A stretch of 47,642 nt of DNA, from NCBI GenBank assembly GCA_022564475.1, contig JADFLJ010000001.1, positions 1-47,642 on the forward strand, written 5' to 3'. Position 1 is the first letter of the stretch, and each line of letters opens with the position of its first letter. Shown one piece after another: positions 9,201 through 41,033 of this stretch. The translations under genes and the position numbers were made by a program. The notes beneath the pieces were generated by a model, which was not told the DNA's origin, ran no database searches, and saw nothing but the letters and a program-made list of their open reading frames with translations. This DNA is from Pseudomonadota bacterium. GTDB taxonomy: Bacteria; Pseudomonadota; Gammaproteobacteria; Steroidobacterales; Woeseiaceae.

Positions 9201-9656
9201 TCAGGCCGTTCCCGAATGGCCGAAGCCACCCGCACCACGCTCACTTTCGTCGAAATCTTCAACGACGTTGAACTGTACCTGTGCGACCGGCACGAACAAC
9301 ATCTGTGCGATTCTCTCGCCCGGCTGCACCGCATAACTCTTCGAACCACGATTCCAGCAGGAGATGAATATCTGTCCCTGGTAATCGGAATCGATCAGGC
9401 CCGTCAGGTTACCCAGTACGAGTCCATGTTTGTGTCCGAGGCCGGAGCGCGGCAGCAATACGGCCGCGAGCGAAGGATCACCTATGTGAATCGCGATTCC
9501 GGTTGGGATGAGAACTGTTTCTCCGGGCTCCACGGTGATGACCTCGTCAATGACAGCCCGCATGTCGAGCGCCGCGGAGCCGTCGGTCGCATAGTGAGGC
9601 AGCGGAATGCTGTCGCCGACGCGTGGGTCGAGTATTTTTAGATCGATCGAACGCAA
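9201..9656 (-). CDS. dut: dUTP diphosphatase
   Basis: Motifs [33 protein letters not shown] and [10 protein letters not shown] are present. Confidence 0.95.
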
Positions 9657-9673
9657 ATCAATATTCCTTATTG

Positions 9674-10870
9674 TTATTTGATGGACGCGTAACGTTCCGC
9701 GATGACCTCGATCAGGTCGCGCGCCAATTCAGTTTTGTCTGTCATCGAGAATGCCTGATGACCGTCCGCAGTGTATACGCAGACCGTGTTCTCGTCGTGA
9801 TCAAAACCGCGATCACGACCTACAAGGTTGGCGATGATCATGTCGAGCTTCTTGTTCTCGAGCTTGGCCAGCGCATGCTCGCGCAAGTTCTCGGTTTCAG
9901 CTGCAAAGCCCACCGTAAACGGGCCCGCTTCCAGCGCCGCTACGGATGCAAGAATATCTCTTGATCGCACGAGGTCGATTTGCATCACCTCGTCTTTCTT
10001 CTTGATCTTTTGTTCGGACAAAGCGGCCGGCCTGTAATCTGCAACCGCAGCCGCTGCGATAAATAGATCGACGTCTTCGAGATTGGCGTGCGTCGCCGCA
10101 AACATCTCTTCTGCGGTTTCAATACGATGAACCTCGACGCCTCGAGGAGCATCAAGCGCAACGGGTCCGCTGATCAGAATAGTTTTTGCACCCTGAGCTA
10201 CCGCTGCGCCGGCCATTGCATAGCCCATTTTTCCGGAGCTGCGGTTAGTGATGTAGCGCACAGGATCGATCGGCTCGCGCGTCGGCCCCGCCGTAACGAG
10301 TACGGTCTTGCCGGCCAACAGGCCTTCGCCGGCAACGCCGCGAAAACCGGGCGCCGTGACAATCGCCGCAATTTCCTGCGGCTCGGTCATGCGGCCGGAT
10401 CCGGTTTCGCCACAGGCCTGGGAACCGTGGTCCGGACCGATCACCGCGAAACCCCGATCTGCCAGCGTCGCACGGTTGGCTTGCACAGCCGGGTTGTTCC
10501 ACATCACGTGGTTCATGGCAGGTGCAATTGCGATCGGCGCCTCGGTCGCGAGACACAAAGTCGTCAACAGGTCCGGTGCTGCTCCGCCCGCGAGCCGCGC
10601 CATGATTTCCGCCGTCGCCGGCGCGATCAACACAACGTCGGCCCAGCGTGCGAGCTCGATGTGGCTCATGGACGCCTCGGCTTCCTTGTCCCAGAGGTTC
10701 GATCGGATTGGCTGGCCAGACACAGCCTGCAGCGCCGTCGCCGTCACAAATTCCTCGGCCGAACTCGTCATGACGATCTGCACATCAGCACCCTGCGATT
10801 TCAGCTGGCGCACGAGTTCGGGCGTCTTATACGCCGCAATACCGCCAGTAATGCCTAGAACGATGTTCAT
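9674..10870 (-). CDS. coaBC: Bifunctional phosphopantothenoylcysteine decarboxylase / phosphopantothenate-cysteine ligase
   Basis: The N-terminus is [23 protein letters not shown], and the CoaB half carries [27 protein letters not shown] 10870 is preferred over GTG 10885. Confidence 0.95.
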
Positions 10871-10880
10871 GGGTGAATTT

Positions 10881-10929
10881 TCCACTGAATCGGGTCATCG
10901 CGTCCAGATTTATTGCTTGTGTCGATAGA
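10881..10929. repeat. Left copy of a 49-bp direct repeat bracketing the hipBST islet
   Basis: 45 of 49 positions match 13022-13070. The two copies share a perfect 29-bp core, CGTCCAGATTTATTGCTTGTGTCGATAGA (10901-10929). Confidence 0.85.
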
Positions 10930-10983
10930 AGGGTCTGGCGGACTATAGCCAGAGAGGTGGTCAATTTGCGCTGTTCTCCGAAC

Positions 10984-11964
10984 CTAAACGCCAATTGATA
11001 GTGTACGCAGCCGGTCAACGATGATTTCGCCTGCGTGTACTTTCTGTTCGTCACGCATATAGCTATGGTGAATCATGTCTATCAGTTGAGGTAACTTACG
11101 TTCGATGTTCTTGACGAAGGATTGAATTGGTTTGGCCGGTATGCCGAGTTTACCAGCGAGCTCAACAAAATCGTGGCCAGTGTAATAACCATGGTGTTCG
11201 TATTGAGCGCTGAAGCCGTTGTCGAGTAAGTCCAGGGCGAGGAAGCCCACCTCGTTTTGGTTTTCGAACGCGCCTGCAAAGAGACAATCGTAGTTTGGCG
11301 TGAGCTGATCGTAGAGGGCGGTTGTATTATTAGGAAACTTCTGCAGGCTGGTGTTCTTAAGGTGCATGTCGTCGTTACCAACGAGATAAGCGTGCATGAT
11401 GCGGTGAATGTATTCCAGGACGACCGTCTGTTTGCCGCCGGTCATTGCGTTAATCAGTGCACCGGCGGCTTCATAGCTTTTGTCGTATTTCCTGTCACTG
11501 GGCATGTCGAACCCTTGCACCAGACCTTCCTGATGGATTTTTTTTACGTTGTCCGGCCGATCAAATCGTCGAGTGATGTAAGCAAGCTCATCGTCGGCAA
11601 AGCTGATGAGTCCACAGTCAGCGGTACGAATCCCGAGGATGTGACCCGTTAACATTGCAGTGTGTTCGTTTTCCGCAGCATTGGGAAACTCTTCCGGGCT
11701 TGGTTTTAATATGTACTGTCCATTCGTGGTGACCGGTTCCAGTTGATGGCTTTTGGTGATTCCCAGCGACAGTTTCTGTTGCACACCGGATATTGACAGG
11801 CCGGTCGTGTAACGGACGCTTGCTTGCTTAAATGCTGGGCGTGAGAGTTCGAGTACTGGGTTTACCTTCAGACTACCGAACAATGACTTGAACGCCGCGT
11901 CCTGATAGTCGCGGTATTTCGAGGCTTTCGGTACTGTCTTTAAGCTAATCTTGCAATAGGTCAT
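10984..11964 (-). CDS. hipT: HipT-like Ser/Thr kinase toxin (C-terminal part of a split HipA)
   Basis: The internal ATG 11962-11964 of ORF 10984..12063 gives MTYCKISLKTVPKASKYRDYQDAAFKSLFGSLKVNPVLELSRPAFKQ, which resembles the HipT N-terminal minidomain. The Gly-rich loop GLSISGVQQKL carries the SIS serines. Catalytic motifs GNDDMHLKNTS and LTPNYD are present. Confidence 0.85.
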   Translation of the reverse strand: MTYCKISLKTVPKASKYRDYQDAAFKSLFGSLKVNPVLELSRPAFKQASVRYTTGLSISGVQQKLSLGITKSHQLEPVTTNGQYILKPSPEEFPNAAENEHTAMLTGHILGIRTADCGLISFADDELAYITRRFDRPDNVKKIHQEGLVQGFDMPSDRKYDKSYEAAGALINAMTGGKQTVVLEYIHRIMHAYLVGNDDMHLKNTSLQKFPNNTTALYDQLTPNYDCLFAGAFENQNEVGFLALDLLDNGFSAQYEHHGYYTGHDFVELAGKLGIPAKPIQSFVKNIERKLPQLIDMIHHSYMRDEQKVHAGEIIVDRLRTLSIGV

Positions 11965-12295
11965 AGCTTTTGTCTGTTTCGGTGATAGCGGGGTCGATGC
12001 GTACGGCGCCGATGAGGTCTCGTCCATTGGCCAGCAACAATCCGAATCGATCGTTTTCATCAATTTTTTGCTGCTGTGACTGCAATCGTCTTAACCAGCC
12101 CTCGGAGACGAGGTTTTCGAAGAAGGGAAACAGATGTGCGCTCACAAAGGCGTCTTCTTGTAGCGGTAAATTGAAGCTCAATGGTGTTCCACCGGCGAGA
12201 TAGTCGGCATGGTAAGTGAACTTATACTCGTCTTCGATCTGCGTTAGCGATCCTGCGAGTCGATTCTCGAAATAGACGTTCGCTATCCGATCCAT
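11945..12295 (-). CDS. hipS: HipS-like protein (stand-alone HipA N-terminal subdomain)
   Basis: This is a 116-aa ORF: MDRIANVYFENRLAGSLTQIEDEYKFTYHADYL...PLSFNLPLQ...FPFFENLVSEGWLRR...LLANGRDLIGAVRI. That is the HipA N-terminal (Couple_hipA-type) pattern. It overlaps hipT by 20 nt and hipB by 13 nt. Confidence 0.8.
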   Translation of the reverse strand: MDRIANVYFENRLAGSLTQIEDEYKFTYHADYLAGGTPLSFNLPLQEDAFVSAHLFPFFENLVSEGWLRRLQSQQQKIDENDRFGLLLANGRDLIGAVRIDPAITETDKSYDLLQD

Positions 12296-12579
12296 AGTTT
12301 CAGCCCTAAGGCGTTGAGTACCTTTTGCAATTTACCCAGGCGTACTGACCGGTGGCCGTGTTCGATCTTACTCAGTGTGGAATAGGCAACACCGGACAGA
12401 TCACACAGATCTTGAAGCGATTGCCCCTGTTTTTTTCTGTGTTCACGAACGAGGCGGCCAGCCGCCTCTGCCGGTTCTAGTTGGGAGATTTGGCCGGACA
12501 GGCTTGCCTGTCGGCGGGCATCCAGGTACTCACCGCGAATTTCAGCGAGCAGGTCATCAAAATGTGTGGCAGAAACCAT
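12283..12579 (-). CDS. hipB: XRE-family HTH protein (HipB-like)
   Basis: This is a 98-aa ORF with the HTH QSLQDLCDLSGVAYSTLSKIEHGHRS...LQKVLNALGLKL. It is the first gene of the three-gene set. Confidence 0.8.
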   Translation of the reverse strand: MVSATHFDDLLAEIRGEYLDARRQASLSGQISQLEPAEAAGRLVREHRKKQGQSLQDLCDLSGVAYSTLSKIEHGHRSVRLGKLQKVLNALGLKLWIG

Positions 12580-12592
12580 TATTAAACCATAG

Positions 12593-12604
12593 TATTCTAG
12601 AATA
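12593..12604. promoter_or_regulatory. Perfect 12-bp palindrome TATTCTAGAATA between the predicted hipB promoter and the hipB start; candidate operator
   Basis: The palindrome was read directly and lies 14-25 nt upstream of the hipB ATG. Calling it an operator is inference. Confidence 0.3.
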
Positions 12605-12614
12605 ATAGAGTGAA

Positions 12615-12641
12615 ATTATATGGAAAAGGCGTGATAGTCAA
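12615..12641 (-). promoter_or_regulatory. Candidate sigma70 promoter of hipBST (TTGACT-N15-TATAAT on the minus strand)
   Basis: The reverse complement reads GTTGACTatcacgccttttccaTATAAT. The -10 is perfect and the -35 is near-perfect. The spacer is only 15 nt (16 nt if GTTGAC is taken as the -35). Confidence 0.45.
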
Positions 12642-13021
12642 CGAAAACCGTCAAATAATGGCGTAAATAGTCGAATAAATACGATATTATATGTTAAAGA
12701 ATATATTATAGTCGGCAAATAGGCACAAGTAAGGGCGAGTAGAGTGTAAGTTTGTTGGTTGGCCTACCGACTGGGTGTGTCGAAATTATCTGGTCAGATC
12801 GACACAAATCTCATCACGTCAATTCCGAATATGGGTGTAATCTCACCCATGTGGGACTTTGAAAGAATTTGAATTCGCGCAGATTTACGCGAACCGGTCG
12901 CTAAACTATTGGCTCAATAGTCCTCTTGACCGAGTGCTATTAGTAACCAGGCAGTATGTGCTCGTTGTGAATCTATCGCGCCTGAATCCAGGGCCTCACT
13001 AACAAAGTTACGCGCCCAGTG

Positions 13022-13070
13022 TCCACTGAATCAGGCCATGCCGTCCAGATTTATTGCTTGTGTCGATAGA
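13022..13070. repeat. Right copy of the 49-bp direct repeat bracketing the hipBST islet
   Basis: 45 of 49 positions match 10881-10929, with the perfect core at 13042-13070. It lies just upstream of radC. Confidence 0.85.
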
Positions 13071-13120
13071 GAGACTTGGCGACTCTGCATCTCCGACGAT
13101 GCCATCGACAAGGAGTGTTA

Positions 13121-13756
13121 ATGGACCCGGATGACACCACACATGAGTCCATGAGCGATGCGGAGCTACTTGCCAGGTTGATGGTTGGCGGTGCCGACAC
13201 AAAATCAGCCACGGACCTGATGCAACGACTCCTGCGCCGATTCGGCGGGCTGCGCGCGCTTTTAGATGCCGAGATGAATTCGATTACAGCGGAGAAAGGC
13301 ATTGGCGCTGTGCGCGCCGGGGCGATTCTCGCCCTCCCGGAGATTGCCCGCCGCTACTTTGCGGCGAGCTTGCCTGTTGGCGAGGTCATCCGCAGCCCGA
13401 CCGATACCGAGACATTTTTGCAGGCAAAACTGCGCCACCTGGAGCACGAGTTGTTCTGCTGCCTGTATCTCGACAATCGCCACCGCGTGCTGCGTTTCGA
13501 CGAGATGTTTCGCGGCACCATCGACGGCACCAGCGTCTATCCCAGGGAGGTGGTCAAGGAGGCTCTCAAGATCAACGCGGCCGCGGTCATTCTGGCGCAC
13601 AATCATCCAAGTGGCGTGGCAGAACCCAGCCAGGCCGATGAACGCATCACCCGGCGGCTGAAAGCCGCCCTCGAACTGGTCGATATTCGGCTGCTGGACC
13701 ACCTGATTATTGGCGACGGACGTGCCACCTCGCTGGCCGCCCGAGGGCTTATCTGA
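13121..13756 (+). CDS. radC: RadC-family JAB/MPN domain protein
   Basis: Motifs ELLARLMVGG, GIGAVRAGAILALPEIARR and the JAMM motif LAHNHPSGVAEPSQAD are present. ATG 13121 is preferred over the upstream 13076 start. Confidence 0.9.
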   Translation: MDPDDTTHESMSDAELLARLMVGGADTKSATDLMQRLLRRFGGLRALLDAEMNSITAEKGIGAVRAGAILALPEIARRYFAASLPVGEVIRSPTDTETFLQAKLRHLEHELFCCLYLDNRHRVLRFDEMFRGTIDGTSVYPREVVKEALKINAAAVILAHNHPSGVAEPSQADERITRRLKAALELVDIRLLDHLIIGDGRATSLAARGLI

Positions 13757-22593: not shown

Positions 22594-23910
22594 ATGAACG
22601 CGGCGGCACCACCCAGTGATCGCGACGTCTGGCGCATCGCCGCGCCGATGATTCTCTCCAGTGTCTCAGTACCTTTACTGGGCATGGTCGACACGGGCGT
22701 CATGGGCCACCTGGAAAGCCCCGTCTATCTCGGCGCCGTTGCGGTCGGCAGCATGATCTTCAGCTTCTTGTACATGGGCATGAATTTCCTGCGCATGGGC
22801 ACGACCGGTATTACGGCGCAGTATTTCGGTGCGCGTAAGGCTGACGGACTGCGTGTCGCGCTGGGTCAGGCCATCGTCGTTGCGTTCGCGATTGCGCTTG
22901 TCATGATCGTCCTGCAGTGGCCGATCAGCCAAACGGCTGTGAGCCTCGTCGGCGCGTCGATGAATGTAGAAGAACACGCGCTGCAGTATTTTTCGATACG
23001 CATCTGGAGTGCGCCCGCCACACTCGCAAACATGGTGTTGATCGGCTGGTTCATCGGCCTGCAAAACGCACGCATTCCACTCCTGATTTTTCTGACCGTC
23101 AATATTACGAATATCGTGCTGGACCTGGTTTTCGTTTTGCTCCTCGGCATGAAAGTCGATGGCGTGGCGCTCGCCTCAGTCATCGCGGAGTACTCCGGTT
23201 TCGCACTTGGCCTTTGTTTTGCGGCGCGTGCACTGCGCCAGCACGGCGGTCAGTGGGTCCACAGTAAGTTTGTGAACTGGCGCGAGTACGCGGTTTTTTT
23301 TGCGGTCAACGGCAATCTTTTCATTCGCACAATGGTGCTGATTTTTACGATCGCGTTTATTACCGCGCAAGGCGCGCGCATGGGCGAGGTGATTCTTGCC
23401 GCGAATGCCATACTCCTGAACCTGCAATACCTGACTGCGTTCGCACTGGACGGTATTGCGCACGCGGCCGAAGCGCTGGTCGGCAAGGCGATAGGCGAAA
23501 AACAACGTGAATCAGTGCAGGTTGCCGTCCGCTTGTCGCTGAAGTGGTCATTGATATTTGCAGCCGGCATGACGCTTTTATATTGGCTCGGCGGCCCGGT
23601 GCTGATCGCCGCGCTCACTGACATTCCCGACATTCGCGAAGCGGCAATACGCTACTTGCCGTGGATGATTTTGTCGCCGCTGGTCTCGGTCTGGTCATTC
23701 CTCTATGACGGTGTGTATATCGGCGCGACGCGCTCGCGAGAGATGCGCAACATCATGCTGTTCTCGGTCTTTATGGTCTTTTTTCCGGCGTGGTATTTGC
23801 TGCAGGGATATGGCAACGACGGTCTTTGGCTTGCCTTCCTGTTGTTTATGGCAAGCCGCGGCATCGGCATGCACATCGGCTATCGACGAACGTTATTGCC
23901 GTCCATCTAG
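22594..23910 (+). CDS. MATE-family efflux transporter (DinF-like)
   Basis: It has 12-TM topology. The N-terminus is VWRIAAPMILSSVSVPLLGMVDTGVMGHL. Confidence 0.85.
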   Translation: MNAAAPPSDRDVWRIAAPMILSSVSVPLLGMVDTGVMGHLESPVYLGAVAVGSMIFSFLYMGMNFLRMGTTGITAQYFGARKADGLRVALGQAIVVAFAIALVMIVLQWPISQTAVSLVGASMNVEEHALQYFSIRIWSAPATLANMVLIGWFIGLQNARIPLLIFLTVNITNIVLDLVFVLLLGMKVDGVALASVIAEYSGFALGLCFAARALRQHGGQWVHSKFVNWREYAVFFAVNGNLFIRTMVLIFTIAFITAQGARMGEVILAANAILLNLQYLTAFALDGIAHAAEALVGKAIGEKQRESVQVAVRLSLKWSLIFAAGMTLLYWLGGPVLIAALTDIPDIREAAIRYLPWMILSPLVSVWSFLYDGVYIGATRSREMRNIMLFSVFMVFFPAWYLLQGYGNDGLWLAFLLFMASRGIGMHIGYRRTLLPSI

Positions 23911-23943
23911 TAGTCCAACAAGCTAGGTTTGATGGACCACTAG
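23907..23943. terminator. Inverted repeat spanning both stop codons of the convergent MATE genes
   Basis: The arms are CTAGTAGTCCA (23907-23917) and TGGACCACTAG (23933-23943), with 10 of 11 positions complementary. There is no U-tract. Confidence 0.3.
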
Positions 23944-25289
23944 TCCGGCGTACACAAACTATGCGCTGTGTGGCGCGCCCATGCATATGCGCCGATCCCG
24001 CTCACGATATTGGCGATCGCGTAAGCCACAAAGATGCCGACCACGCCATAGAACTTAAGTCCGATGAATGCGAGCGGCACGTACAATACAAGGATGCGCG
24101 CGACACTGATCCAGACAGCGGGCATCGGCTTGCCAAGGCCGTTAAACGACGCGTTCATGACCATGACCATGCCGTAGGTGCCATAGCTGATCGGCACGAT
24201 CCAGAGAAATAATTTCGTCACTTCCATGACAGCCTCGGAATCACTGAAGAGCCGCGGCAAAACATCCGACAGCAGTGCAAGAATGCCGGCAATGACCATC
24301 CCGGCAGCAAGACAGAACAACGTACACAACCACAGCGCCCGGAGAATTCGTCGCTCGCGTCCGGCCGCAAAGTTTTGCCCGACGAATGGACCGATGATCG
24401 ACGACATCGCGTAGAAAATGACCAGCATCATGGCTTCGATACGCGTCGCCACACCGAACCCGGCAACCGCATCTGTGCCAAGGCGCGCAATCATCGCCGT
24501 GACCAGCACAGCACCCAGCGGCACGATCGCGTTCGTACCCGCCGCCGGAATGCCTACGTGCAAAATGTCGCGCCAGGATTTTCGTAATTCCACCGGGTCG
24601 GGTTTGTTGAAACTCAGCATGTCCAGTCGAAAGCGCATCAGGTAGATCGTGCCAACAAAGATCGTCGCGCGCGCAATCAAGGCCGCGGTCGCCGCGCCAT
24701 CCAGGCCCATCGCCGGAATCGGCCCGACGCCGAATATCAGGATGGGGTCAAGCGCTACATTGAGTATCGCTGCCATAACCATGAGCATGCTCGGCAAGCG
24801 CGTGTCACCGGTCGCACGCATGCTGGCCATGCCGATCATGCCAACCACAACAAATGGCACGCCCGAATACAAGATCGTCATGAACGACCTGATCATGGGC
24901 AACATGTCTTCCGGTGCACCGAGCAGGCGAAACATCGGATTAATGGTCAAAATTCCAATCGCGCAAATGACGAGAGTGATCAGGAAGCCAAGAAAAAGAC
25001 TATCAGTGGCCAGGCGCCTCGCGCGGCGATGATCGCCGGCGCCGATTGCGCGAGCAACGACAGAGGATGTACCTGCCGCGAGTCCAATCGCAACACTCGT
25101 AACAATCATCAGGACTGGAAAGCCGAAACCGAACGCGGCCAGCTCCCGATCGCCGACCTGCCCCAGGAACCAGGTATCGATGAGTCCTTGCGCCATCATC
25201 GTCGAGATGCCAAACAAAACCGGCACCGTCATGTCGATCAGGTGCCGGCCTACCGGTCCCTCGGTTAATCTCGCTTTTGGCGCATCCAT
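23940..25289 (-). CDS. MATE-family efflux transporter (NorM-like)
   Basis: The N-terminus is LTEGPVGRHLIDMTVPVLFGISTMMAQGLIDTWFLGQ and the protein has 12 TM segments. Its start overlaps the sortase stop by 25 nt. Confidence 0.85.
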   Translation of the reverse strand: MDAPKARLTEGPVGRHLIDMTVPVLFGISTMMAQGLIDTWFLGQVGDRELAAFGFGFPVLMIVTSVAIGLAAGTSSVVARAIGAGDHRRARRLATDSLFLGFLITLVICAIGILTINPMFRLLGAPEDMLPMIRSFMTILYSGVPFVVVGMIGMASMRATGDTRLPSMLMVMAAILNVALDPILIFGVGPIPAMGLDGAATAALIARATIFVGTIYLMRFRLDMLSFNKPDPVELRKSWRDILHVGIPAAGTNAIVPLGAVLVTAMIARLGTDAVAGFGVATRIEAMMLVIFYAMSSIIGPFVGQNFAAGRERRILRALWLCTLFCLAAGMVIAGILALLSDVLPRLFSDSEAVMEVTKLFLWIVPISYGTYGMVMVMNASFNGLGKPMPAVWISVARILVLYVPLAFIGLKFYGVVGIFVAYAIANIVSGIGAYAWARHTAHSLCTPD

Positions 25290-25909
25290 GCGCGCACCGT
25301 AGCACGGCCCGCAGAACCGACTACCGAATCTCGCAACAGGCTCAACGTAACGACATAGCGCATGGGCCCACCCGCGGCAACTGCGTCAAACGGATAACAG
25401 GTCACAAGACTAAGAACGGATTCGTCGGTATCGAGCAGCAGGCTCCCGCGGCGGGCGTCCACGACATCCAGGTCGACAACCCGGTAGGTATGACCACGGC
25501 CGTCGGCGGTCTCCACCTGCAGCTTTTCGCCAATGGCAAGATCCTTGAGAAAATTGAAATGCGTATCGCGATGACCTGCGATGACGCTGTTACCGCGTTG
25601 ACCCGGCATGACACTCGCACTCAGGTGGCCGGGCCCGAAGGCCAGCGTTCGACCCGAGCCACCCGCAAGCACGATCAGGTCCACTTTGCCGCCCCTGGCC
25701 CGGAGGCGGGCGATTGGCCAGGTGTCGGCCCAGGGCCAGGGTGCAGGGCTGGCTTCACCGCGCGTCGCCCGGCCCCAGGCATGCAACATGAGTCCCTGCG
25801 CCACCCAGGCCTTGGCCGGTATGTACGCGCCGTGGCCAAGCTGCCAGAAACCGAGACACAGAAGGCAGGCGATGATCCAGCTCCGCGCGTTCTTAAACCG
25901 CCATCGCAT
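25265..25909 (-). CDS. Sortase, marine-proteobacterial (class GN) type
   Basis: The start is taken at M10 (MRWRFKNARSW, TM anchor). The catalytic His is in VIAGHRDTHF, the Cys in LSLVTCYPF and the Arg in PMRYVV. It overlaps the stop of the upstream target gene by 17 nt. Confidence 0.85.
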   Translation of the reverse strand: MRWRFKNARSWIIACLLCLGFWQLGHGAYIPAKAWVAQGLMLHAWGRATRGEASPAPWPWADTWPIARLRARGGKVDLIVLAGGSGRTLAFGPGHLSASVMPGQRGNSVIAGHRDTHFNFLKDLAIGEKLQVETADGRGHTYRVVDLDVVDARRGSLLLDTDESVLSLVTCYPFDAVAAGGPMRYVVTLSLLRDSVVGSAGRATVRAWMRQKRD

Positions 25910-27983
25910 GATGCATCCTCCGCCGGCGGCGACCAAGCATCATTAACATCAGTGCGCTGAGGAAACAGCCGAATCCGATCAGCTGCATTTGAGTAGCATT
26001 CGTCGCAGTCGCCGGGAAAGCGAAAATCGCATTCGCGTTTTGTCCATACGCCACAAGATTCGGTAGCTGGTCTTTGCGCATCGGATCGTTCGCGGCGCGC
26101 ACGGGTGTTTTGTCGATCGCCACAAGACTCGTGTGCTTGCTGACGAGATGATGCTTGAGCGCAGTCTCGACGATCGCGTCACGAATCTCGTCCGGGCTGG
26201 CTCCGCGGCGCTGGTCATCCATAAGATGCGAGATGCGTGCTCTGGCCCACAGAGCGCCGATACCGGAACTTTGTTCTTCGCTGCCAAGTTCCATTTCCTG
26301 AAACCACGCACCCCCGACCGAATCACCGCTTATGCCGACGCGGGCATCCGCACCCAGCTCGCCGCGTATTCTCGCCTTGATCGTGACAGGCTCGCCGAGA
26401 TACAAGTCCGGCACGACGCTCGGGTAAGTCTCGGCGATCACGTTAGCTGGCCACACGACGCTGATGTTCGTCACTTGTGGTTGTTCGATTTTGGCGAACA
26501 ATCGATGCATTTTTTCGCCGACTTCGTGTAACGCACTAATCGTCGTAAACGTACCTCGACCGACTTCGGCCGATTTGCGCATGAACCAGCTGTTCGGTGC
26601 AGAACCGATCCCGACCGTGAACAAGCGGCCATTGCCAAGCTTGTTCTCGATGAGTTTGAACAATTCACTTTCGTTGCCGACGGCACCGTCGGTGATGAAA
26701 ATGATCTGTCGCAGGTGGCTCTCCTCGGGAGGCAAGTACATTGCCAGCTCGAGTGCGGCACGCATCTCGGTACCGCCGCTGGCTTGCAGTGAGCCGACGA
26801 ATGACTCCGCCGTTGCGAGATTCTGCAGGTTGGCGACGACACTTGAGTGCGACATCGGATTGGGTCGCGAGCTAAAGGCAATGATATTGAATCGGTCACC
26901 TGGACGAAGACCTTGCAGCGCACGTCGCAAAGCCTTCTTTGCCTGCACAATTGACGTGCCGTGCATGGAACCCGACGTGTCGATGATGAAAATCATCTCA
27001 CGCGGCATGATGTTCGCACTTGCCGTGTCCGCTGACGGCGGCATGACCATAAGAAGGTAATAGGACTCACCGTTAATCGTCTCGGTGAATACCATCGCCG
27101 TCGGCGCAGCACCGCGTGCCGGTCGCCAGAGTAATTCGAAGTCATGGTCCATGGGTACCGTGCCGCCCGCCAGCGAGATGGAGTAGCGATCATTTGTTTC
27201 CGAGATGTTTACCGGGTGATAGCGACTCGCGATAATTTCGAGCGGCATGCCTGCATTCACATTGATGTTCATCGATACCCGATGCCCGCGCGTGGCGGCG
27301 ACCATAGGCGGAGTGATGCGTGATGCGTCTTCGACGACGTCGGTGTTTGCCGCCCAGCCGCTGCCCTCACGATCAGGCAGTCCCGATGCAGCTCCAGGAA
27401 TGTAGCGCGGTGTTATTGTCAGCGGGAAGCGGATACTGAATGAACCGTTGTCGTAGCGAAGATCTTCGAGATATTCGATTTCGACGACGACAAGCTCGCC
27501 CGGCGCAATGTTGGCGACCGATGTCGTAAACATATTGGGACGTTGTTGCTCGACGAGACTGGCTTTCTTGCCTTCTCGCTTCGCCTGTTCGTATTCCTTT
27601 TTTGCCTGCGCTTTCTCGCGAATCTCAGCTTCGATGAATCGATCGCCGATATGCAGGCGCAGCCGGTCGATTGCCGCTTTGTCGGGCAGCGGAAAAACGT
27701 AAACGCCTTCTGCCCAGTCAGTGCCCTCATTGCGAAATTCCTGGCGCACCGATACGCGTGCAACGAGACCGTTAATCTGTATGTCGACTTTGGTATTCAG
27801 CAGCGTCGAGACGTGGTAGCCGCCCTGCATACGCAGCAGCAGGCTGCCTCCCTGCATGGCACCGGGTGTGATTTCATCGGCCGCCGGCTGCTGGGCGAAT
27901 GCGCCGTCGGGATTGATGGCCAGGATTGTAATCAGCAGCGCATGCCAGACCCATGTTGACTGGCGTTGCAGTAATTCTGCCAT
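25893..27983 (-). CDS. Marine proteobacterial sortase target protein (VIT + von Willebrand factor A domains, C-terminal sorting signal)
   Basis: The start is ATG 27981-27983, giving the signal peptide MAELLQRQSTWVWHALLITILAINPDGAFAQ. A VIT-like region follows. The vWA MIDAS motif is IFIIDTSGSMHG. The C-terminus is FPATATN + ATQMQLIGFGCFLSALMLMMLG + RRRRR. Confidence 0.85.
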   Translation of the reverse strand: MAELLQRQSTWVWHALLITILAINPDGAFAQQPAADEITPGAMQGGSLLLRMQGGYHVSTLLNTKVDIQINGLVARVSVRQEFRNEGTDWAEGVYVFPLPDKAAIDRLRLHIGDRFIEAEIREKAQAKKEYEQAKREGKKASLVEQQRPNMFTTSVANIAPGELVVVEIEYLEDLRYDNGSFSIRFPLTITPRYIPGAASGLPDREGSGWAANTDVVEDASRITPPMVAATRGHRVSMNINVNAGMPLEIIASRYHPVNISETNDRYSISLAGGTVPMDHDFELLWRPARGAAPTAMVFTETINGESYYLLMVMPPSADTASANIMPREMIFIIDTSGSMHGTSIVQAKKALRRALQGLRPGDRFNIIAFSSRPNPMSHSSVVANLQNLATAESFVGSLQASGGTEMRAALELAMYLPPEESHLRQIIFITDGAVGNESELFKLIENKLGNGRLFTVGIGSAPNSWFMRKSAEVGRGTFTTISALHEVGEKMHRLFAKIEQPQVTNISVVWPANVIAETYPSVVPDLYLGEPVTIKARIRGELGADARVGISGDSVGGAWFQEMELGSEEQSSGIGALWARARISHLMDDQRRGASPDEIRDAIVETALKHHLVSKHTSLVAIDKTPVRAANDPMRKDQLPNLVAYGQNANAIFAFPATATNATQMQLIGFGCFLSALMLMMLGRRRRRMHHAMAV

Positions 27984-28051
27984 TGTTTTGCCGGCCTGTC
28001 GGTGGCTAACTTGCGGGTGCCATGTGCGCTGACCTCGGTACATCGTATCTC

Positions 28052-28084
28052 TCCCTTGCTTGACGAATGTATTCAAACAAGGGA
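28052..28084. promoter_or_regulatory. 11-bp inverted repeat in the divergent target/pdsR promoter region (candidate operator)
   Basis: The arms are TCCCTTGCTTG (28052-28062) and CAAACAAGGGA (28074-28084), with 10 of 11 positions complementary and an 11-nt spacer. The left arm overlaps a TTGACG hexamer. Confidence 0.3.
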
Positions 28085-28164
28085 ATACGCCACTCTGCCG
28101 ACGGCGACGTGGCATTACACCGACGTAATGTGGCAAATTGTGGTGCTTGCTAAAGGAGGCCTTT

Positions 28165-28857
28165 GTGGCAAAACGCATTGCAATCGTAGAAGACGAAGTC
28201 GCCATTCGCGAAAACTATGTCGCAGCATTCAAACGAGAGGGCTATGCCGTCGATGCTTACGAGGCGCGCGGGCCCGCACTTGAGGCATTTGCAGCCCGGC
28301 TACCGGACCTCGTCGTAATCGACGTCAATCTCAAGGACGACGTTGAAGGCGGTTTTGAGCTGTGCCGGGAATTGCGATCGCGCGCGCCGGACCTGCCGAT
28401 CATTTTTCTGACGGCACGCGACAGCGAATTCGACGCCGTGTCTGGCCTGCGCCTGGGCGCAGACGACTACCTGACCAAGGACATAAGCTTGCCCCACCTC
28501 ATGGCACGCATCGCGGCATTGTTCCGACGCCTGGATGCGATGTCGAAACCGCAGGCGGCGCAAAGCCGGATTACGCGCGGTGATCTTGAGATTGATACGG
28601 ACCGTATGATGATTGCCTGGCAGGGACAGCCCATCGGCTTAACACTCACCGAATTCTGGCTCGTACATGCCATGGCCCGATATCCGGGACACGTCAAGAA
28701 TCGTCAGCAACTGATGGATGCCGCGCAAGCCGTTCTCGACGACAATACGATTACATCCCATATCAAGCGTATTCGCCGCAAGTTTGTCGCCGTTGATGCA
28801 GACTTCGACGCAATCGAGACCGTCTATGGCATGGGCTATCGCTGGTTGTCGTCCTGA
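28165..28857 (+). CDS. pdsR: Dedicated sortase system response regulator (OmpR family)
   Basis: GTG 28165 lies 5 nt after AAGGAGG and gives VAKRIAIVEDEVAIRENY. The receiver Asp is in DLVVIDVNL. A winged-helix C-terminus (YGMGYRW) is present. The symbol follows the TIGR03787-type family name, and I did not run that HMM. Confidence 0.8.
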   Translation: MAKRIAIVEDEVAIRENYVAAFKREGYAVDAYEARGPALEAFAARLPDLVVIDVNLKDDVEGGFELCRELRSRAPDLPIIFLTARDSEFDAVSGLRLGADDYLTKDISLPHLMARIAALFRRLDAMSKPQAAQSRITRGDLEIDTDRMMIAWQGQPIGLTLTEFWLVHAMARYPGHVKNRQQLMDAAQAVLDDNTITSHIKRIRRKFVAVDADFDAIETVYGMGYRWLSS

Positions 28858-28872
28858 CGGCGACCTAAGGCC

Positions 28873-30921
28873 ATGAATCTCAAACGGCAGCTACTCCTCG
28901 TCAGCCTGCTGACCCTGATGTTGCCGTGGGCCGGCTGTGAATTCATTCGCGAAACCGAATCGGCGTTGCGGCAGAACCAGCAACAACTGCTTGCGGGTAC
29001 GGCGCGTGCGATCGCCGGTCGGCTCGCGCAGTACCCCGAAGAATTTGCCGTTCATGCCGGCGCGAGCCATCTCATCGGCGATCAGCTCTACGGTCATGAA
29101 CTGGAAAGCGCGCCGAACGTCGATGGTTATTTCGACGACTGGCCGCTGACAGAGGCGTCGTTACGATCTCTTCCCGGCGTTGATGGCCCGATACGCTTCG
29201 TAACGGGAATCTTCGAACAGTATGTTTACCTCTATATTGAGGTCGCCGACAAGAATATCGTCTATGGAGATATGGGCTCGCTGCTGCCGATTGCGGGCGG
29301 ACGTCACGCAGATCGGGTGCGCCTGATCAGCCATAGCCCACCCTATCTCGAGGAGTCCATCTCGTTCACGGCAGAGGCACCGGGACCCGTCGTGGCCTAT
29401 GTGCAAAACCCATACGGATTCGAGCCCGCCACAACAATTCATGCTCACTGGCAGGACGTGCCGGGCGGTTACCAGCTCGAAGCACGAATCCCCCGGAACC
29501 TGCTCGGCACGCACCTCGGCGTTGTCGTCAACAACACCGACAACGCGAACGATGCCGGCATTCGCAGCGCGAGTTTCGCAACACGCACGCCGGGCCCATT
29601 CGTCAGCACTTCCGGCGAGCTGGCCCGCATTGCGGAAGGTGTCCTGCAACCGGGGATGCGTCTGCTTGTGACTGATGTAAACGGCTGGCGCATTGCCACG
29701 GTCGGCGATTTGCGATCTCAGCAAGAGACGATCACCGCGCCCGTGTCGACCTGGCTGCGCTTCGCCTACGACGCATTACTCGAACCCGGCAAGGAACCCA
29801 TATTTTCCGGACCGGACGCAAGCGGCCGGGAACAACAGTCTTATATTGTCACAGCCATCGGCGGTCAACGCTCTGCGGTCTGGTTTCAAAGCGCTGACAG
29901 CGGGCGTGCAATTGTTTCGGTCGCAGAACCCGTCACAACAGCAAACGAGACCATCGGCGCCATCGTCTTGCAACAGGGTACCGACGAGATCCTCAGCCTG
30001 ACGAATCAAACACTGGCGAGACTCATGAATGCTTCGATCATCGCAATGCTGGTGGTTGCTGGCGTGCTGCTGGGTTACGCAAGCTTGCTATCCCAACGCA
30101 TACGGCGACTCAGCACCGCTGCGGAGCAAGCGCTCGAGAGCGACAGAATCGAGACGATATTGCCAAGCGCCGACGCGGCAGATGAAATCGGTGATCTGTC
30201 TCGAAGTTTCGGCCATGTGCTTGGACAACTCGGCGACTACAACGAATACCTGCGCACGCTGGCGTCGAAACTATCGCACGAATTACGCACGCCTCTCGCG
30301 ATCGTCAGCTCGTCGCTGGAGAACCTCGAACATGAAAGCTTAAGCGATTCGGCGCTTGCGTACACGGCGCGTGCCAGGGACGGTACTGACAGGCTGCGCA
30401 AAATATTGAGTGCGATGAGTGAGGCCAGCCGCGTTGAAGAGCTGATGAAAAACGCCGACACCGAGAATTTTGATCTGCGCCCGGTACTCGAGTCAACGAT
30501 TAACGCCTACCGCGACATTTACGCCGAACGCAGCTTCACATTTGAATGCGATGGCAGCTCCTTCCCAATGAGTGGCTCACCGGAACTGATAATCCAGATG
30601 CTGGACAAGCTCATCGACAACGCCGTTAGCTTCAGCGCCAGAGGCAATCAGATCAGCGTTGCCCTCTCGGCAGAAGAAGACGACTCCCGATCGAAGCCTT
30701 GCCTGCGTCTGCGCGTCGCAAATCCGGGCCCACCACTGCCCGAGCGCATGCGCACACAGATGTTCGACTCCATGGTGTCGATGCGACCGCACAAGGACAA
30801 CAAGCACCTCGGGCTTGGTCTGTACGTCGCAAAAATAATTGCCGACGGCCACGGCGGCCGCATAACAGGCGAGAACATAGAAGGCGGCGTAGAATTTTCC
30901 GTGTTATTACCGTCGCTTTAA
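28873..30921 (+). CDS. pdsS: Dedicated sortase system sensor histidine kinase
   Basis: An N-terminal anchor (MNLKRQLLLVSLLTLMLPWAGC) and a large periplasmic domain are followed by HAMP-like and H-box (LSHELRTPLAIV) regions. The G-box is HLGLGLYVAKIIADGHGG. It lies 15 nt after pdsR. Confidence 0.8.
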   Translation: MNLKRQLLLVSLLTLMLPWAGCEFIRETESALRQNQQQLLAGTARAIAGRLAQYPEEFAVHAGASHLIGDQLYGHELESAPNVDGYFDDWPLTEASLRSLPGVDGPIRFVTGIFEQYVYLYIEVADKNIVYGDMGSLLPIAGGRHADRVRLISHSPPYLEESISFTAEAPGPVVAYVQNPYGFEPATTIHAHWQDVPGGYQLEARIPRNLLGTHLGVVVNNTDNANDAGIRSASFATRTPGPFVSTSGELARIAEGVLQPGMRLLVTDVNGWRIATVGDLRSQQETITAPVSTWLRFAYDALLEPGKEPIFSGPDASGREQQSYIVTAIGGQRSAVWFQSADSGRAIVSVAEPVTTANETIGAIVLQQGTDEILSLTNQTLARLMNASIIAMLVVAGVLLGYASLLSQRIRRLSTAAEQALESDRIETILPSADAADEIGDLSRSFGHVLGQLGDYNEYLRTLASKLSHELRTPLAIVSSSLENLEHESLSDSALAYTARARDGTDRLRKILSAMSEASRVEELMKNADTENFDLRPVLESTINAYRDIYAERSFTFECDGSSFPMSGSPELIIQMLDKLIDNAVSFSARGNQISVALSAEEDDSRSKPCLRLRVANPGPPLPERMRTQMFDSMVSMRPHKDNKHLGLGLYVAKIIADGHGGRITGENIEGGVEFSVLLPSL

Positions 30922-32606: not shown

Positions 32607-33959
32607 TCACGCGTATTCGCGCGACAGTTTATTATATCGCCACGTCAGCAGGATGGCCGCTACGCCAAGACCAATGACGAAGCCGCCCCAGATATAGTTC
32701 GGCGGCAGCCTGAAGGTCACCGCAGCCAGATACGCCAACGGGAATGCCAGCACCCAATATGAAAATGTATTGATGATCATGGGCACGCGCGTGTCTTTGT
32801 AGCCGCGCAACGCACCTGCAGCGCCGATCTGCACACCGTCTCCAACCTGAAAAAGCGCAGCCATTAGCAGCAGGCTGATTGCGATATCCTTAACCAACTC
32901 GTTATTCGTATACATCGTGACGATCGAATCACTGAAGACGATCAGGAATATTGCCGAGCACGCCATGAACGCGCCGCAGGCGAATATGCCAAATCCTCCG
33001 GCATAGCGGGCGCGCTTAAGCTGACCCGCACCGAGTTCGTGGCTGACCCGCACGGTGATCGCCGAGCTCAATGCCAATGGAATCATAAACATTGTCGATG
33101 CAAAACTGATCGCAATCTGATGCGCCGCCGTTATCACGGCGCCCAGCGTTCCCATCAGGATCGATACGGCATTGAACAACCCGGCCTCGGCCGTAATCGT
33201 GACAGCAATCGGAAAGCCAAGCGAAAAAATCTCTCGCAATACCTTGAGTCGCGGCGGCGCCAGGCGCGAAAAAATCCCTATCACCTTGTAACGCCTGGCC
33301 GAGACCATGTACACGACCATGATAATCGCGATCAGCCACATCGTTATCGCACTCGCGATACCGCAGCCAACGGCACCGAGTTCCGGCGCGCCGAGATTGC
33401 CGAATATAAGCACCCAGTTCAGGAACACGTTGCATACGATCGCAAAGAATGAGATGTACATGATGGGCTTGGTTACACCGATGCCCTCGGTCGTGAAGCG
33501 CAGGGCCAGGAACACAAACATGCCGGGCGCACCCAGCGTGATTGCCTGCGTATAGCCAATGGTCATTTCGCGAAAACCGGGGTCAATCGGAATAAAAACG
33601 AGCAGCGGCCCAACCAGGTACTGCGCTGCAAAAATGACCGGTATCGCGAGTGCAATGCCCAGGTAAATTCCCTGCCGCGTGTAGCGGCCGATCAGGTGCG
33701 CGTCTCCGGCACCGTAATGGCGTGCAGCGATGGGTGCGATTGCCATGAGCAAGCCAAGGCCTATCGTAAACGCGAAAAACCACAAGCTGCCGCCAATGGC
33801 CACGGCGGCCAGAGTTTCCACGCCCAGGCGACCCGCCATAACCGCGTCCGCAAACTGCATACCCGCGATAGACAGATTATTAACGATCAACGGGCCCGCA
33901 AGTTTGAACAAGCGGCCGGTTTCGTTACGCCAGGATAAAGTGTCAGAGTGACGGGTCAC
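32607..33959 (-). CDS. MATE-family efflux transporter (NorM-like)
   Basis: It has 12 TM segments. The N-terminus is ETGRLFKLAGPLIVNNLSIAGMQFADAVMAGRLG. Confidence 0.85.
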   Translation of the reverse strand: MTRHSDTLSWRNETGRLFKLAGPLIVNNLSIAGMQFADAVMAGRLGVETLAAVAIGGSLWFFAFTIGLGLLMAIAPIAARHYGAGDAHLIGRYTRQGIYLGIALAIPVIFAAQYLVGPLLVFIPIDPGFREMTIGYTQAITLGAPGMFVFLALRFTTEGIGVTKPIMYISFFAIVCNVFLNWVLIFGNLGAPELGAVGCGIASAITMWLIAIIMVVYMVSARRYKVIGIFSRLAPPRLKVLREIFSLGFPIAVTITAEAGLFNAVSILMGTLGAVITAAHQIAISFASTMFMIPLALSSAITVRVSHELGAGQLKRARYAGGFGIFACGAFMACSAIFLIVFSDSIVTMYTNNELVKDIAISLLLMAALFQVGDGVQIGAAGALRGYKDTRVPMIINTFSYWVLAFPLAYLAAVTFRLPPNYIWGGFVIGLGVAAILLTWRYNKLSREYA

Positions 33960-39468: not shown

Positions 39469-40359
39469 CTAGCGGCAGTAAATATCGGAGACGCGTTCCG
39501 CCTGACGGCGCAAAGCCATCCCGATATTCGCCTCGTCGTATAAGGCGTTGATCGCACCCAGGTCGGGTGCCTTCGGTTGCAGCTCTTCCTCCGCATTGTC
39601 GATCGGCGCGTCACAGGCGATTCCCGTCAGCCGCCGCGCAAGATCGGCCGCGCCTTTATGAGTTTCAAGCTTCGCGCCGAGGGTCTTCGCGCCGCGCACA
39701 TCGACTTCGTGTACTTTGTCGAGATTCGCGTAGATTTTTTCCAGGCTACCGAAATGCCTGAGCAAGGCCCCGGCGGTTATCTTGCCGACCCCCGGAACGC
39801 CGGGAATATTGTCAACGGCATCGCCCGCCAGCGCCAGAAAATCAGCGATCTGTTCCGGCCACACACCGAACACCTCCGGCACGCCCTCGTACTCAATCTT
39901 GCCTCTGCCTGCGAAGTCCCAGAAAACATCGTCACGCGCAATCAACTGCGCGAGGTCCTTGTCGCGACTGACCACGGTCGAGGAGCGACCTCTGCGGCGG
40001 CCATGCTCGACAAGCGCGCCAATCAGGTCATCCGCCTCGTACCTGGGATTGGACACATTCATCAAACCCATTGCCCGTGTAAACCGTCGACATTGCTCAA
40101 ACTGGCGCTTCAGGTCGTCGGGTGTCGGGTCGCGATTCGCTTTGTATTCGGGATAAATGTCGGTGCGAAAATTGGTCGTCGAACTTTCATCGAATGCAAC
40201 CGCGATGTACTCGGGCGTGACCTGTTCCATGAAGTCACCAAGAAACCGGCAAAAGCCGTACAGCGCATTAACGGGATTGCCTTCGCCATCGACCATGTCA
40301 TCCGGCATCGAATAATAGGCACGGAAAATGTAAACACTCGCATCAATCAGGTATTGCAT
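39469..40359 (-). CDS. 5'-3' exonuclease / flap endonuclease family protein (Xni/ExoIX-like)
   Basis: Motifs MQYLIDASVYIFRAYYS, AVAFDES, YKANR and EADDLIGAL are present. The H3TH region is LAGDAVDNIPGVPGVGKITAGALL. An alternative GTG start at 40380 overlaps the HNH stop. Confidence 0.85.
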   Translation of the reverse strand: MQYLIDASVYIFRAYYSMPDDMVDGEGNPVNALYGFCRFLGDFMEQVTPEYIAVAFDESSTTNFRTDIYPEYKANRDPTPDDLKRQFEQCRRFTRAMGLMNVSNPRYEADDLIGALVEHGRRRGRSSTVVSRDKDLAQLIARDDVFWDFAGRGKIEYEGVPEVFGVWPEQIADFLALAGDAVDNIPGVPGVGKITAGALLRHFGSLEKIYANLDKVHEVDVRGAKTLGAKLETHKGAADLARRLTGIACDAPIDNAEEELQPKAPDLGAINALYDEANIGMALRRQAERVSDIYCR

Positions 40360-40379
40360 CGACAAACCTTGTTGGGCCA

Positions 40380-41033
40380 CTAACCGTGAAAATGCGTATC
40401 GATCACCTGATCTCCCGAAAAGAGATGTCCGGTCAATCGTGCATGCAGCGGGCTGGAGCGGGGAATATGCGCGAGCAGGTACTGCATCTGATCCGCCAGC
40501 ACGCGCCGCCCCTTCAGGTAAATGTACTCGGCATAGGTTGGTGTGAACGGCACCGCGACGAGTTCCATCGCCGCCTGCTCGGGCGTGCGGCCACCCTTGT
40601 AGTTATTGCAGCGCCGGCACGCCGTCGCGACGTTGTTCCAGCTATCGCGGCCGCCGTGCGATATCGGAGTGATGTGATCGCGCGTCAGATCACGTGTCGG
40701 AAATCGCTTCGCACAATAAAGACAAAGATTCGCATCCCGTTTGAACAGCGTGCGATTGTTCAGCGGCGGAACGTATTTATCACGATTACGTGTAAGGCTC
40801 TTGCTTGTACCGTGAGTGGCAATAATCGAATTGACATCGACCTTGCTGCGCTGACCGTCGAATGAGCTGTAGCCGCCGAACACAGTGTAGAGCAGTGTGC
40901 CGCAATCGTAAGCGATCTGTTTGGCATGATAGAGACGCACAGCTTCCCTGTAGTCGATCCACTCAAGTGGCATACCGGCTACGTCAGTTCGCAACACCTG
41001 TTGCGAAATATTGGAAACCATTCCTGCAAGCAT
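40380..41033 (-). CDS. HNH endonuclease
   Basis: The motif CLYC...DHITPISHGGRDSWNNVATACRRCNNYKG combines an HNH motif with a CxxC...CxxC zinc site. Confidence 0.8.
   Translation of the reverse strand: MLAGMVSNISQQVLRTDVAGMPLEWIDYREAVRLYHAKQIAYDCGTLLYTVFGGYSSFDGQRSKVDVNSIIATHGTSKSLTRNRDKYVPPLNNRTLFKRDANLCLYCAKRFPTRDLTRDHITPISHGGRDSWNNVATACRRCNNYKGGRTPEQAAMELVAVPFTPTYAEYIYLKGRRVLADQMQYLLAHIPRSSPLHARLTGHLFSGDQVIDTHFHG

Follow-up and report, generated by a model that had tools for sequence, protein, structure and literature searches.

The HipBA toxin–antitoxin system of Escherichia coli K-12 (PDB 3TPD, 2WIU) consists of the kinase HipA, a single polypeptide of 440 aa that targets GltX, and of HipB, which is the antitoxin and also a helix-turn-helix (HTH) autoregulator. 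In the HipBST system of E. coli O127:H6 E2348/69 (PDB 7AB3/7AB4/7AB5), what corresponds to HipA is found as two proteins, HipS and HipT, encoded together with HipB in the order hipB-hipS-hipT and in overlapping frames (PMC6581861; PMC10627512). The same tripartite architecture is found in Legionella pneumophila (Lpg2368-2370; PDB 7VKB, 7WCF, 8EZR/S/T; PMC9325769; PMC10653801), and in the classification of Gerdes et al. the HipT proteins of the HipBST family form clade III (PMC8262856). Here we describe three overlapping genes at positions 10984-12579 of a 47,642-nt stretch of DNA (contig JADFLJ010000001.1; the whole stretch is hereafter called the window), which very probably form a chromosomal tricistronic HipBST type II toxin–antitoxin operon. 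The host is an uncultured marine-sediment member of the Woeseiaceae, whereas the O127 system belongs to an enteric pathogen.

In the HipT of E. coli O127:H6, or HipT(Ec), residues Ser57 and Ser59 are autophosphorylation sites, Asp210 is catalytic, Asp233 binds Mg, and Lys161, Tyr162 and His212 make the phosphoserine contacts; Glu63 and Trp65 of HipS(Ec) form a wedge that excludes the Gly-rich loop of the kinase (PMC10627512; PMC6581861). TrpS rescues the HipT proteins of E. coli, Haemophilus influenzae and Tolumonas auensis, all of them gammaproteobacteria (PMC6581861). Neither TrpS nor GltX rescues the Legionella protein, HipT(Lp), which is structurally congruent all the same (PMC10653801). 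HipB is necessary and sufficient for repression of the operon in E. coli O127 (PMC10627512), and the HipB operator of Legionella is an inverted repeat of 18 nt situated just upstream of hipB (PMC10653801).

Gene organization and family assignment

The three genes are co-oriented on the minus strand, all with ATG starts. The first, hipB (12283-12579), encodes an XRE-family HTH protein of 98 aa, extended by about 40 residues at its N-terminus, which is the predicted transcriptional autoregulator of the operon. The second, hipS (11945-12295), encodes a 116-aa protein equivalent to a stand-alone HipA N-subdomain-1, the predicted antitoxin, and the third, hipT (10984-11964), a minimal Hip Ser/Thr kinase of 326 aa, the predicted toxin. 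Overlaps amount to 13 nt between hipB and hipS (12283-12295) and to 20 nt between hipS and hipT (11945-11964). The kinase begins with MTYCKISL...KVNPVLELSRPAFKQ and contains the motifs GLSISGVQQKL (G55-L65), GNDDMHLKNTS (G196-S206) and TPNYD (T222-D226). A longer hipT reading frame (10984-12063) would give 359 aa from an upstream TTG, but homologues do not support this start. The 326-aa start is backed by the pairing of residue 1 with residue 1 of O127 HipT and favoured by the invariance of C4 and L8 across 40 homologues.

Curated domain models recognize all three proteins. HipB matches Pfam HTH_3 (8.7e-11, residues 44-94 of 98), HipS matches Couple_hipA (6.4e-26), with NCBIfam in agreement, and HipT matches HipA_C (1.6e-35, covering residues 56-292 only), each above the curated cut-off. 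When compared with the sequences in the PDB, the best match of HipT is E. coli O127:H6 HipT (7ab3_C; 1e-34, residues 1-306 against 1-319, phmmer), followed by Legionella HipT (about 6e-24) and, for the C-terminal part only, E. coli K-12 HipA (2e-5). The corresponding bit scores are 123 for O127 HipT, 88 for HipT(Lp) and 27 for HipA. HipS matches HI_0666 (1.5e-18), O127 HipS (8e-18) and HipS(Lp) (1.5e-13), and its BLASTP identity is 40% to both O127 HipS and H. influenzae HipS. For HipB the closest solved structure is that of the Legionella protein, HipB(Lp) (8ezt, 1.4e-6). An exact-sequence look-up of HipT found no record, and a 98%-identical protein (P0001) served as its stand-in.

Fold comparison gave the same ranking. 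A single-chain AlphaFold2 model of HipT was built on 40 homologues. The model has a mean predicted local distance difference test (pLDDT) score of 90 and a predicted template modelling score (pTM) of 0.90, and its N-terminal mini-domain is confident (pLDDT 93-97 over residues 1-40). Its sole disordered stretch, of low confidence, comprises residues 54-61 in the Gly-rich loop, a part of Hip kinases known for conformational switching. In a Foldseek search against the PDB the top 11 hits were all HipT chains (template modelling score, TM, 0.72-0.89; full-length chains 0.81-0.87), and HipA chains ranked after them with TM of about 0.5-0.7. O127 HipT heads the PDB matches both in sequence and in fold (TM about 0.85), and the Legionella chains 7vkc and 7wcf reach TM 0.85-0.87, although in sequence Legionella HipT is the more distant of the two.

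The likeness to the O127 system extends from gene order and overlapping frames to the parts of each protein: a HipS of about 100 aa that carries the Glu/Trp wedge motif EGWLR, a HipT with the mini-domain, S-I-S at 57-59, the GN(N/D)DMHL(R/K)N motif with the catalytic Asp and the (V/N)YD motif with the Mg-binding Asp, and an XRE HTH HipB with an N-terminal extension of some 35-40 residues. The systems differ in the sizes of HipB, HipS and HipT (98, 116 and 326 aa here; 107, 103 and 335 aa in O127), in the overlaps (13 and 20 nt here; 16 and 1 nt in O127) and in an 8-residue tail that the window HipS owes to the loss of an ancestral stop codon. The window HipB, the product of the first gene of the operon, has the N-terminal extension and is without a long C-terminal tail. 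K-12 HipBA belongs to the same kinase superfamily and has the same four kinase motifs, but its HipA lacks the HipT mini-domain, and the match of the window kinase to it is weak also by fold (TM normalised to target about 0.55). In the window and in all relatives examined hipS and hipT are separate genes, unlike the fused HipA of about 440 aa. At the levels of both sequence and structure all the features that define HipBST are thus present, and the fused HipA of a canonical HipBA is absent. The locus is an additional member of an already described family and no new type of system, and the copy is a clear and apparently functional one.

All of this agrees with an earlier, sequence-only reading of the same DNA. 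It had described three minus-strand genes overlapping by 13 and 20 nt, an arrangement that the list of open reading frames (ORFs) and the sequence bear out, and had taken their products for an XRE HTH protein, a stand-alone HipA N-terminal subdomain of 116 aa and a HipA-C-type kinase of 326 aa. The Pfam searches that it proposed (HipA_C, Couple_hipA and HTH_3) returned a significant match for each protein, HipS in addition matching HipS structures, and the proposed comparison with O127 HipB, HipS and HipT gave 6e-3, 8e-18 and 1e-34, respectively. The peptides it quoted are all found in HipT at the motifs given above. Its parallel between the N-terminus and two-serine loop of the kinase and those of O127 HipT stands, residue 1 pairing with residue 1 and the serines lying at 57 and 59, and the key residues of the catalytic motifs it regarded as intact align to those of HipT(Ec) and are invariant in 40 homologues.

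Functional residues, proposed mechanism and expression

The window HipT has equivalents of all the functional residues of the E. coli protein: S57, S59, K159, Y160, D199 (catalytic), H201 and D226 (Mg-binding). The Gly-rich loop reads G55-L-S57-I-S59-G60, with both serines exactly at the O127 positions. Among 40 homologues of 49-98% identity, residues G55, S57, I58, S59, G60, K64, K159, Y160, D199, H201, N204, Y225 and D226 are invariant. In HipS the wedge residues E65 and W67, equivalent to E63 and W65 of the E. coli protein, lie within the EGWLR motif, which is invariant among the window, E. coli and H. influenzae.

By homology, free HipT would phosphorylate an essential translation factor, most likely the tryptophanyl-tRNA synthetase TrpS at a serine of its KMSKS loop, and this would halt translation and growth. 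The toxicity of HipT, the antitoxin function of HipS and TrpS as the target are accordingly predictions from the characterized relatives, to which HipT is closer on the E. coli side, as the bit scores show; no trpS gene is present within the 47,642 nt of the window. Conserved interface residues and purifying selection on each of the three genes lend indirect support to a toxic HipT that HipS, and not HipB, would neutralise. Ser57 and Ser59 may act as autophosphorylation and regulatory sites, a role that we infer from a protein of 31% identity. A HipB dimer would bridge two HipS-HipT pairs and repress the operon, and the overlapping reading frames may couple the translation of hipB, hipS and hipT.

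A candidate promoter and operator region lies upstream of hipB on the minus strand (12590-12641), as read from the sequence. It comprises a candidate -35 element TTGACT (12636-12641), a candidate -10 element TATAAT (12615-12620) and, between the latter and the hipB start, an 18-nt inverted repeat TATTATTCTAGAATACTA (12590-12607; reported as palindrome I1), which has a perfect 12-nt core and stops 10 nt short of the hipB ATG. Two related loci, L001 and L088, have the block conserved, and in the latter a central C-G pair is changed to T-A on both sides of the dyad. Given the operator repeat of Legionella, which is comparable in size and position, and repression by HipB in O127, the repeat at 12590-12607 is proposed as the probable HipB operator.

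No convincing terminator hairpin follows hipT, and no intrinsic terminator was detected ahead of coaBC, the next gene downstream; as hipT and coaBC lie on the same strand, read-through into coaBC-dut is possible. Rfam gave no match at gathering scores anywhere in the window, and none at E<=1 across 10850-13150. Upstream of the candidate promoter, the window and L001 share a non-coding stretch of about 60 nt (12730-12790; ACCAGATAATTTCGACACACCCAGTCGGTAGGCCAACCAACAAACTTACACTCTACTC) in identical form, with divergent sequence on either side of it; the stretch has no Rfam match and no significant fold. The conserved non-coding region 12720-12830 folds no better than its shuffles, and a structured RNA in or beside the insert was rejected.

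Insertion, duplicated target and distribution

The operon is part of a unique inserted segment of 2081 bp (10941-13021) that is missing from relatives with an empty site. Its GC content is 48.4%, compared with 56.6 +/- 1.3% (minimum 53.3%) in 826 equally long segments elsewhere in the 47,642-nt stretch (z = -6.5). On one side the insert is followed by coaBC (9674-10870) and dut (9201-9656), both on the minus strand, and on the other by radC-rpmB-rpmG-mutM on the plus strand from 13121, the radC start being taken from the L001 gene call and a RadC Pfam match. The insert is bracketed by a direct repeat (D1; 60 nt, 85% identity, spacing 2141), which is a duplication of about 52-60 nt of the conserved radC-coaBC intergenic sequence and is present as a single copy at empty sites. 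Relative to the start codons, the coaBC-proximal copy (10881-10940) ends 11 nt upstream of coaBC and the radC-proximal copy (13022-13081) lies 40 nt upstream of radC, whose ATG is at 13121. Within the insert, a cassette core comprising promoter and hipBST on the minus strand (10993-12723) can be delimited by blastn against L088. At the radC-side end, alignment with L001 reveals the remnant of a truncated small ORF on the minus strand (12914-13009). In L001 (6870-7051) 80 extra nt complete this ORF to 50 aa (MLIETYIDALRVNEELAELVGAALDSGAIDSQRAHTAWLLIALGQEDYWV), of which the window retains the 3' part only; the 50-aa product has no Pfam match.

The conserved context was examined in the 80 best genome loci among species representatives, mostly labelled Woeseiaceae or unclassified Gammaproteobacteria; the window CoaBC shares 84% identity with its counterpart in an uncultured Woeseiaceae metagenome-assembled genome (MAG). 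In 65 of the 80 loci radC lies directly beside coaBC, and in none is hipBST found between the two. Scanning metagenome contigs with a radC-proximal 23-mer yielded five contigs, all with an empty site and one copy of the repeat; two of them match the window flanks closely, L096 at 97% and L094 at 96% identity. The site is occupied in four other metagenome contigs (L001-L004), whose HipT is 98% identical to that of the window. Occupied L001-L004 and empty L094 and L096 together indicate that the cassette is a presence/absence polymorphism in one species-level population. The sequence-only reading had called the module visibly more AT-rich than its neighbours and had held that it interrupts a conserved core gene pair; the composition of the insert, the adjacency of radC and coaBC in most genome loci and the five empty contigs uphold both statements.

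The hipBST cassette is horizontally acquired and recently inserted between two housekeeping genes. The operon would have arrived by horizontal transfer on the 2.1-kb low-GC cassette, and this would have integrated in the Woeseiaceae radC-coaBC intergenic region with duplication of about 52-60 nt of the target. Such a duplication is too long for the target duplication of a transposase and hints at an integration in which a circular intermediate recombined site-specifically or through short homology. A tRNA-gene integration site was ruled out, the window containing neither tRNA nor tmRNA genes. Comparison of the loci suggests that insertions recur between radC and coaBC, or that this spot is a variable one. 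Other cargo of 1.3-1.6 kb occupies it in eight of the 80 genome loci (L010, L014, L016, L032, L034, L036, L068 and L082) and encodes S41-like peptidases, an outer-membrane protein, an SstT-like symporter and a trypsin-like protease.

Outside this site, relatives of the cassette occur in other surroundings. L088, whose HipT is 86% identical, shares only positions 12723-10993 with the window (83% identity), and its flanks are unrelated by blastn. More distant hipBST copies (64-65% identity), including one in another Woeseiaceae MAG, adjoin genes for an extracytoplasmic function (ECF) sigma factor, FecR and a TonB receptor. Spread of the cassette by insertion sequences (IS) in other genomes is hinted at. 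The upstream flank of L088 (1-400; RFKSMHQAQRFLGTHAAVYNLFNLGRHLISAEHYR) seems, by eye, to encode an IS6-family transposase at its C-terminal end, and in L090 a DDE_Tnp_IS240 gene lies about 5 kb from hipBST. As to the neighbouring dut, public metagenome gene calls apparently place it on the wrong strand (L001 10324-10749), judged by position and length only. This call, which has no Pfam match, agrees in position and length with a 141-aa antisense ORF of the window (9216-9641, inside dut), a reminder that automatic gene calls at the locus are imperfect.

Alternative explanations and significance

The lengths of hipS and hipT sum to a HipA-like 442 aa (116 + 326), and their frames overlap by 20 nt with a one-base offset, so that a single indel could fuse them. 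A recent frameshift or an error in the sequence might therefore have cut an ordinary hipA of about 440 aa into these two halves, and the locus would then be a canonical bicistronic hipBA or hold a hipA pseudogene; the sequence-only reading had itself named a single-base error as what could overturn it. We consider this extremely improbable. In nine related loci, which share the gene order and represent three different genomic contexts, hipB is 96-98 aa, hipS 108-111 aa and hipT 326-328 aa long, and the junction between the latter two takes different forms: a TAA stop followed by a 13-nt gap (L001-L004 and L088), a 4-nt ATGA overlap (L005-L007, L089 and L090) and, in the window, the 20-nt overlap. 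Because the junctions differ among independent metagenome contigs that keep the genes separate, a single sequencing error can not explain the split. The best 120 of 536 HipT homologues (E<=1e-5) are 273-347 aa long and contain HipA_C only, and residues 1-41 of the window HipT form a mini-domain that is absent from HipA and aligns from residue 1 with O127 HipT. HipT structures also outscore HipA, both in bits (123 against 27) and in fold (TM 0.85 against about 0.55-0.7). With the recurring split, the different junctions and the HipT-sized homologues a frameshifted hipA was ruled out. The peculiar junction of the window has its own origin in a 9-nt deletion between two AAACA repeats, seen by comparison with the 98%-identical metagenome copies (window 11965-11990; L001 7975-8003). 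It removed the ancestral TAA of hipS, which lengthened HipS from 108 to 116 aa and turned the 13-nt gap before hipT into an overlap of 20 nt; the last 8 residues of HipS are seen only in the window.

This deletion, together with the 80-nt deletion that truncates the neighbouring small ORF, could also be taken for erosion relative to L001, and the insert carries no mobility gene. That the module is a decaying, non-functional toxin–antitoxin remnant is nevertheless very unlikely. None of the three reading frames is broken, every catalytic and interface residue has been retained, and the loss of 9 nt keeps hipS in frame without touching the start of hipT. The ratios of nonsynonymous to synonymous substitution (dN/dS) are well under 1, both against L088 (hipB 0.21, hipS 0.15, hipT 0.09) and against L001 (hipB 0.41, hipS 0.16, hipT 0.22), and thus all three genes are under purifying selection, which for hipS and hipT speaks against a broken hipA as well. 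A more serious alternative accepts a genuine HipBST but gives the kinase a target other than TrpS, be it a further aminoacyl-tRNA synthetase or some other essential protein, and to the module a role in abortive-infection phage defence or in selfish stabilization of the cassette instead of persistence. In its favour are the lack of rescue of HipT(Lp) by TrpS or GltX (PMC10653801), the proposal that Hip kinases are abortive-infection effectors (PMC8262856), the modest identity of the window HipT to HipT(Ec), and the mobile and patchy cassette, present or absent among strains with 96-97% identical flanks and found in other contexts in relatives. Nevertheless, the kinase scores higher with the TrpS-targeting E. 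coli protein than with HipT(Lp), and the HipT proteins of all three gammaproteobacteria named above are rescued by TrpS (PMC6581861). PADLOC returned no significant match to a defence family, only weak hits to PDC-M03A/B (6e-5 and 2.5e-4) and generic HTH matches, and no defence genes lie near hipBST; assignment to a known anti-phage defence family was therefore not made. Among 50,697 phage records there is no HipT relative, and a phage origin was ruled out on this ground; plasmids gave 8 distant matches to HipT, all of <=35% identity. On balance we regard this alternative as possible but rather doubtful. Less credible still is a bolder view, in which the cassette is a minimal non-autonomous, site-specific integrative element with att-like repeats of about 52 nt, mobilized by a recombinase in trans, with radC-coaBC as a hot spot dedicated to cargo insertion in Woeseiaceae and toxin–antitoxin addiction to maintain it, and/or in which HipT belongs to a clade with a non-TrpS target.

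Several observations weigh against the assignment to a HipBST operon acting on TrpS and acquired on a mobile cassette. HipB is the weakest match of the three: it scores 1.7e-13 with the NCBIfam model couple_hipB, which is under the curated cut-off of that model, and its match to O127 HipB (7ab4_A) reaches only 6e-3. HipT is distant from the characterized E. coli protein (31% BLASTP identity), and given that neither TrpS nor GltX rescues HipT(Lp), the target can not be deduced from family membership alone. The unusual 8-residue tail of HipS and the 20-nt overlap could alter the stoichiometry of HipS and HipT. The spacer of the candidate promoter is a non-optimal 15 nt, and as it is shorter than 16 nt, the promoter was not called by the consensus scan. 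Finally, neither the ORF list nor a Pfam scan of the larger ORFs shows an apparent integrase or transposase. Even so, a HipBST operon remains by far the best description of the locus.

Elsewhere in the window, a sortase gene overlaps a gene for a 770-aa VIT/VWA-domain protein and is adjoined by a divergent response regulator and histidine kinase (25265-30921), a cluster that presumably resembles the proteobacterial dedicated sortase system. Three genes for MatE-family efflux transporters lie within 12 kb (22594-25289 and 32607-33959), two of them as convergent neighbours. On the minus strand at 39469-41033 a stand-alone HNH endonuclease (217 aa) is encoded directly upstream of a 5'-3' exonuclease (303 aa).

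Woeseiaceae are abundant bacteria of marine sediments and are mostly uncultured. The HipBST family, experimentally defined in E. coli, Haemophilus, Tolumonas and Legionella, now reaches this group. The understanding of HipBST function is unchanged by the locus, and its additional value is modest, consisting of a delimited polymorphic insertion and a natural variant of the HipS tail. As an example of the natural gain of a toxin–antitoxin cassette it is unusually clean, with exact insert boundaries, a duplicated target, and occupied and empty alleles in the same population. This makes the locus convenient for work on the movement of such cassettes and on the question whether selection or addiction keeps them in place.

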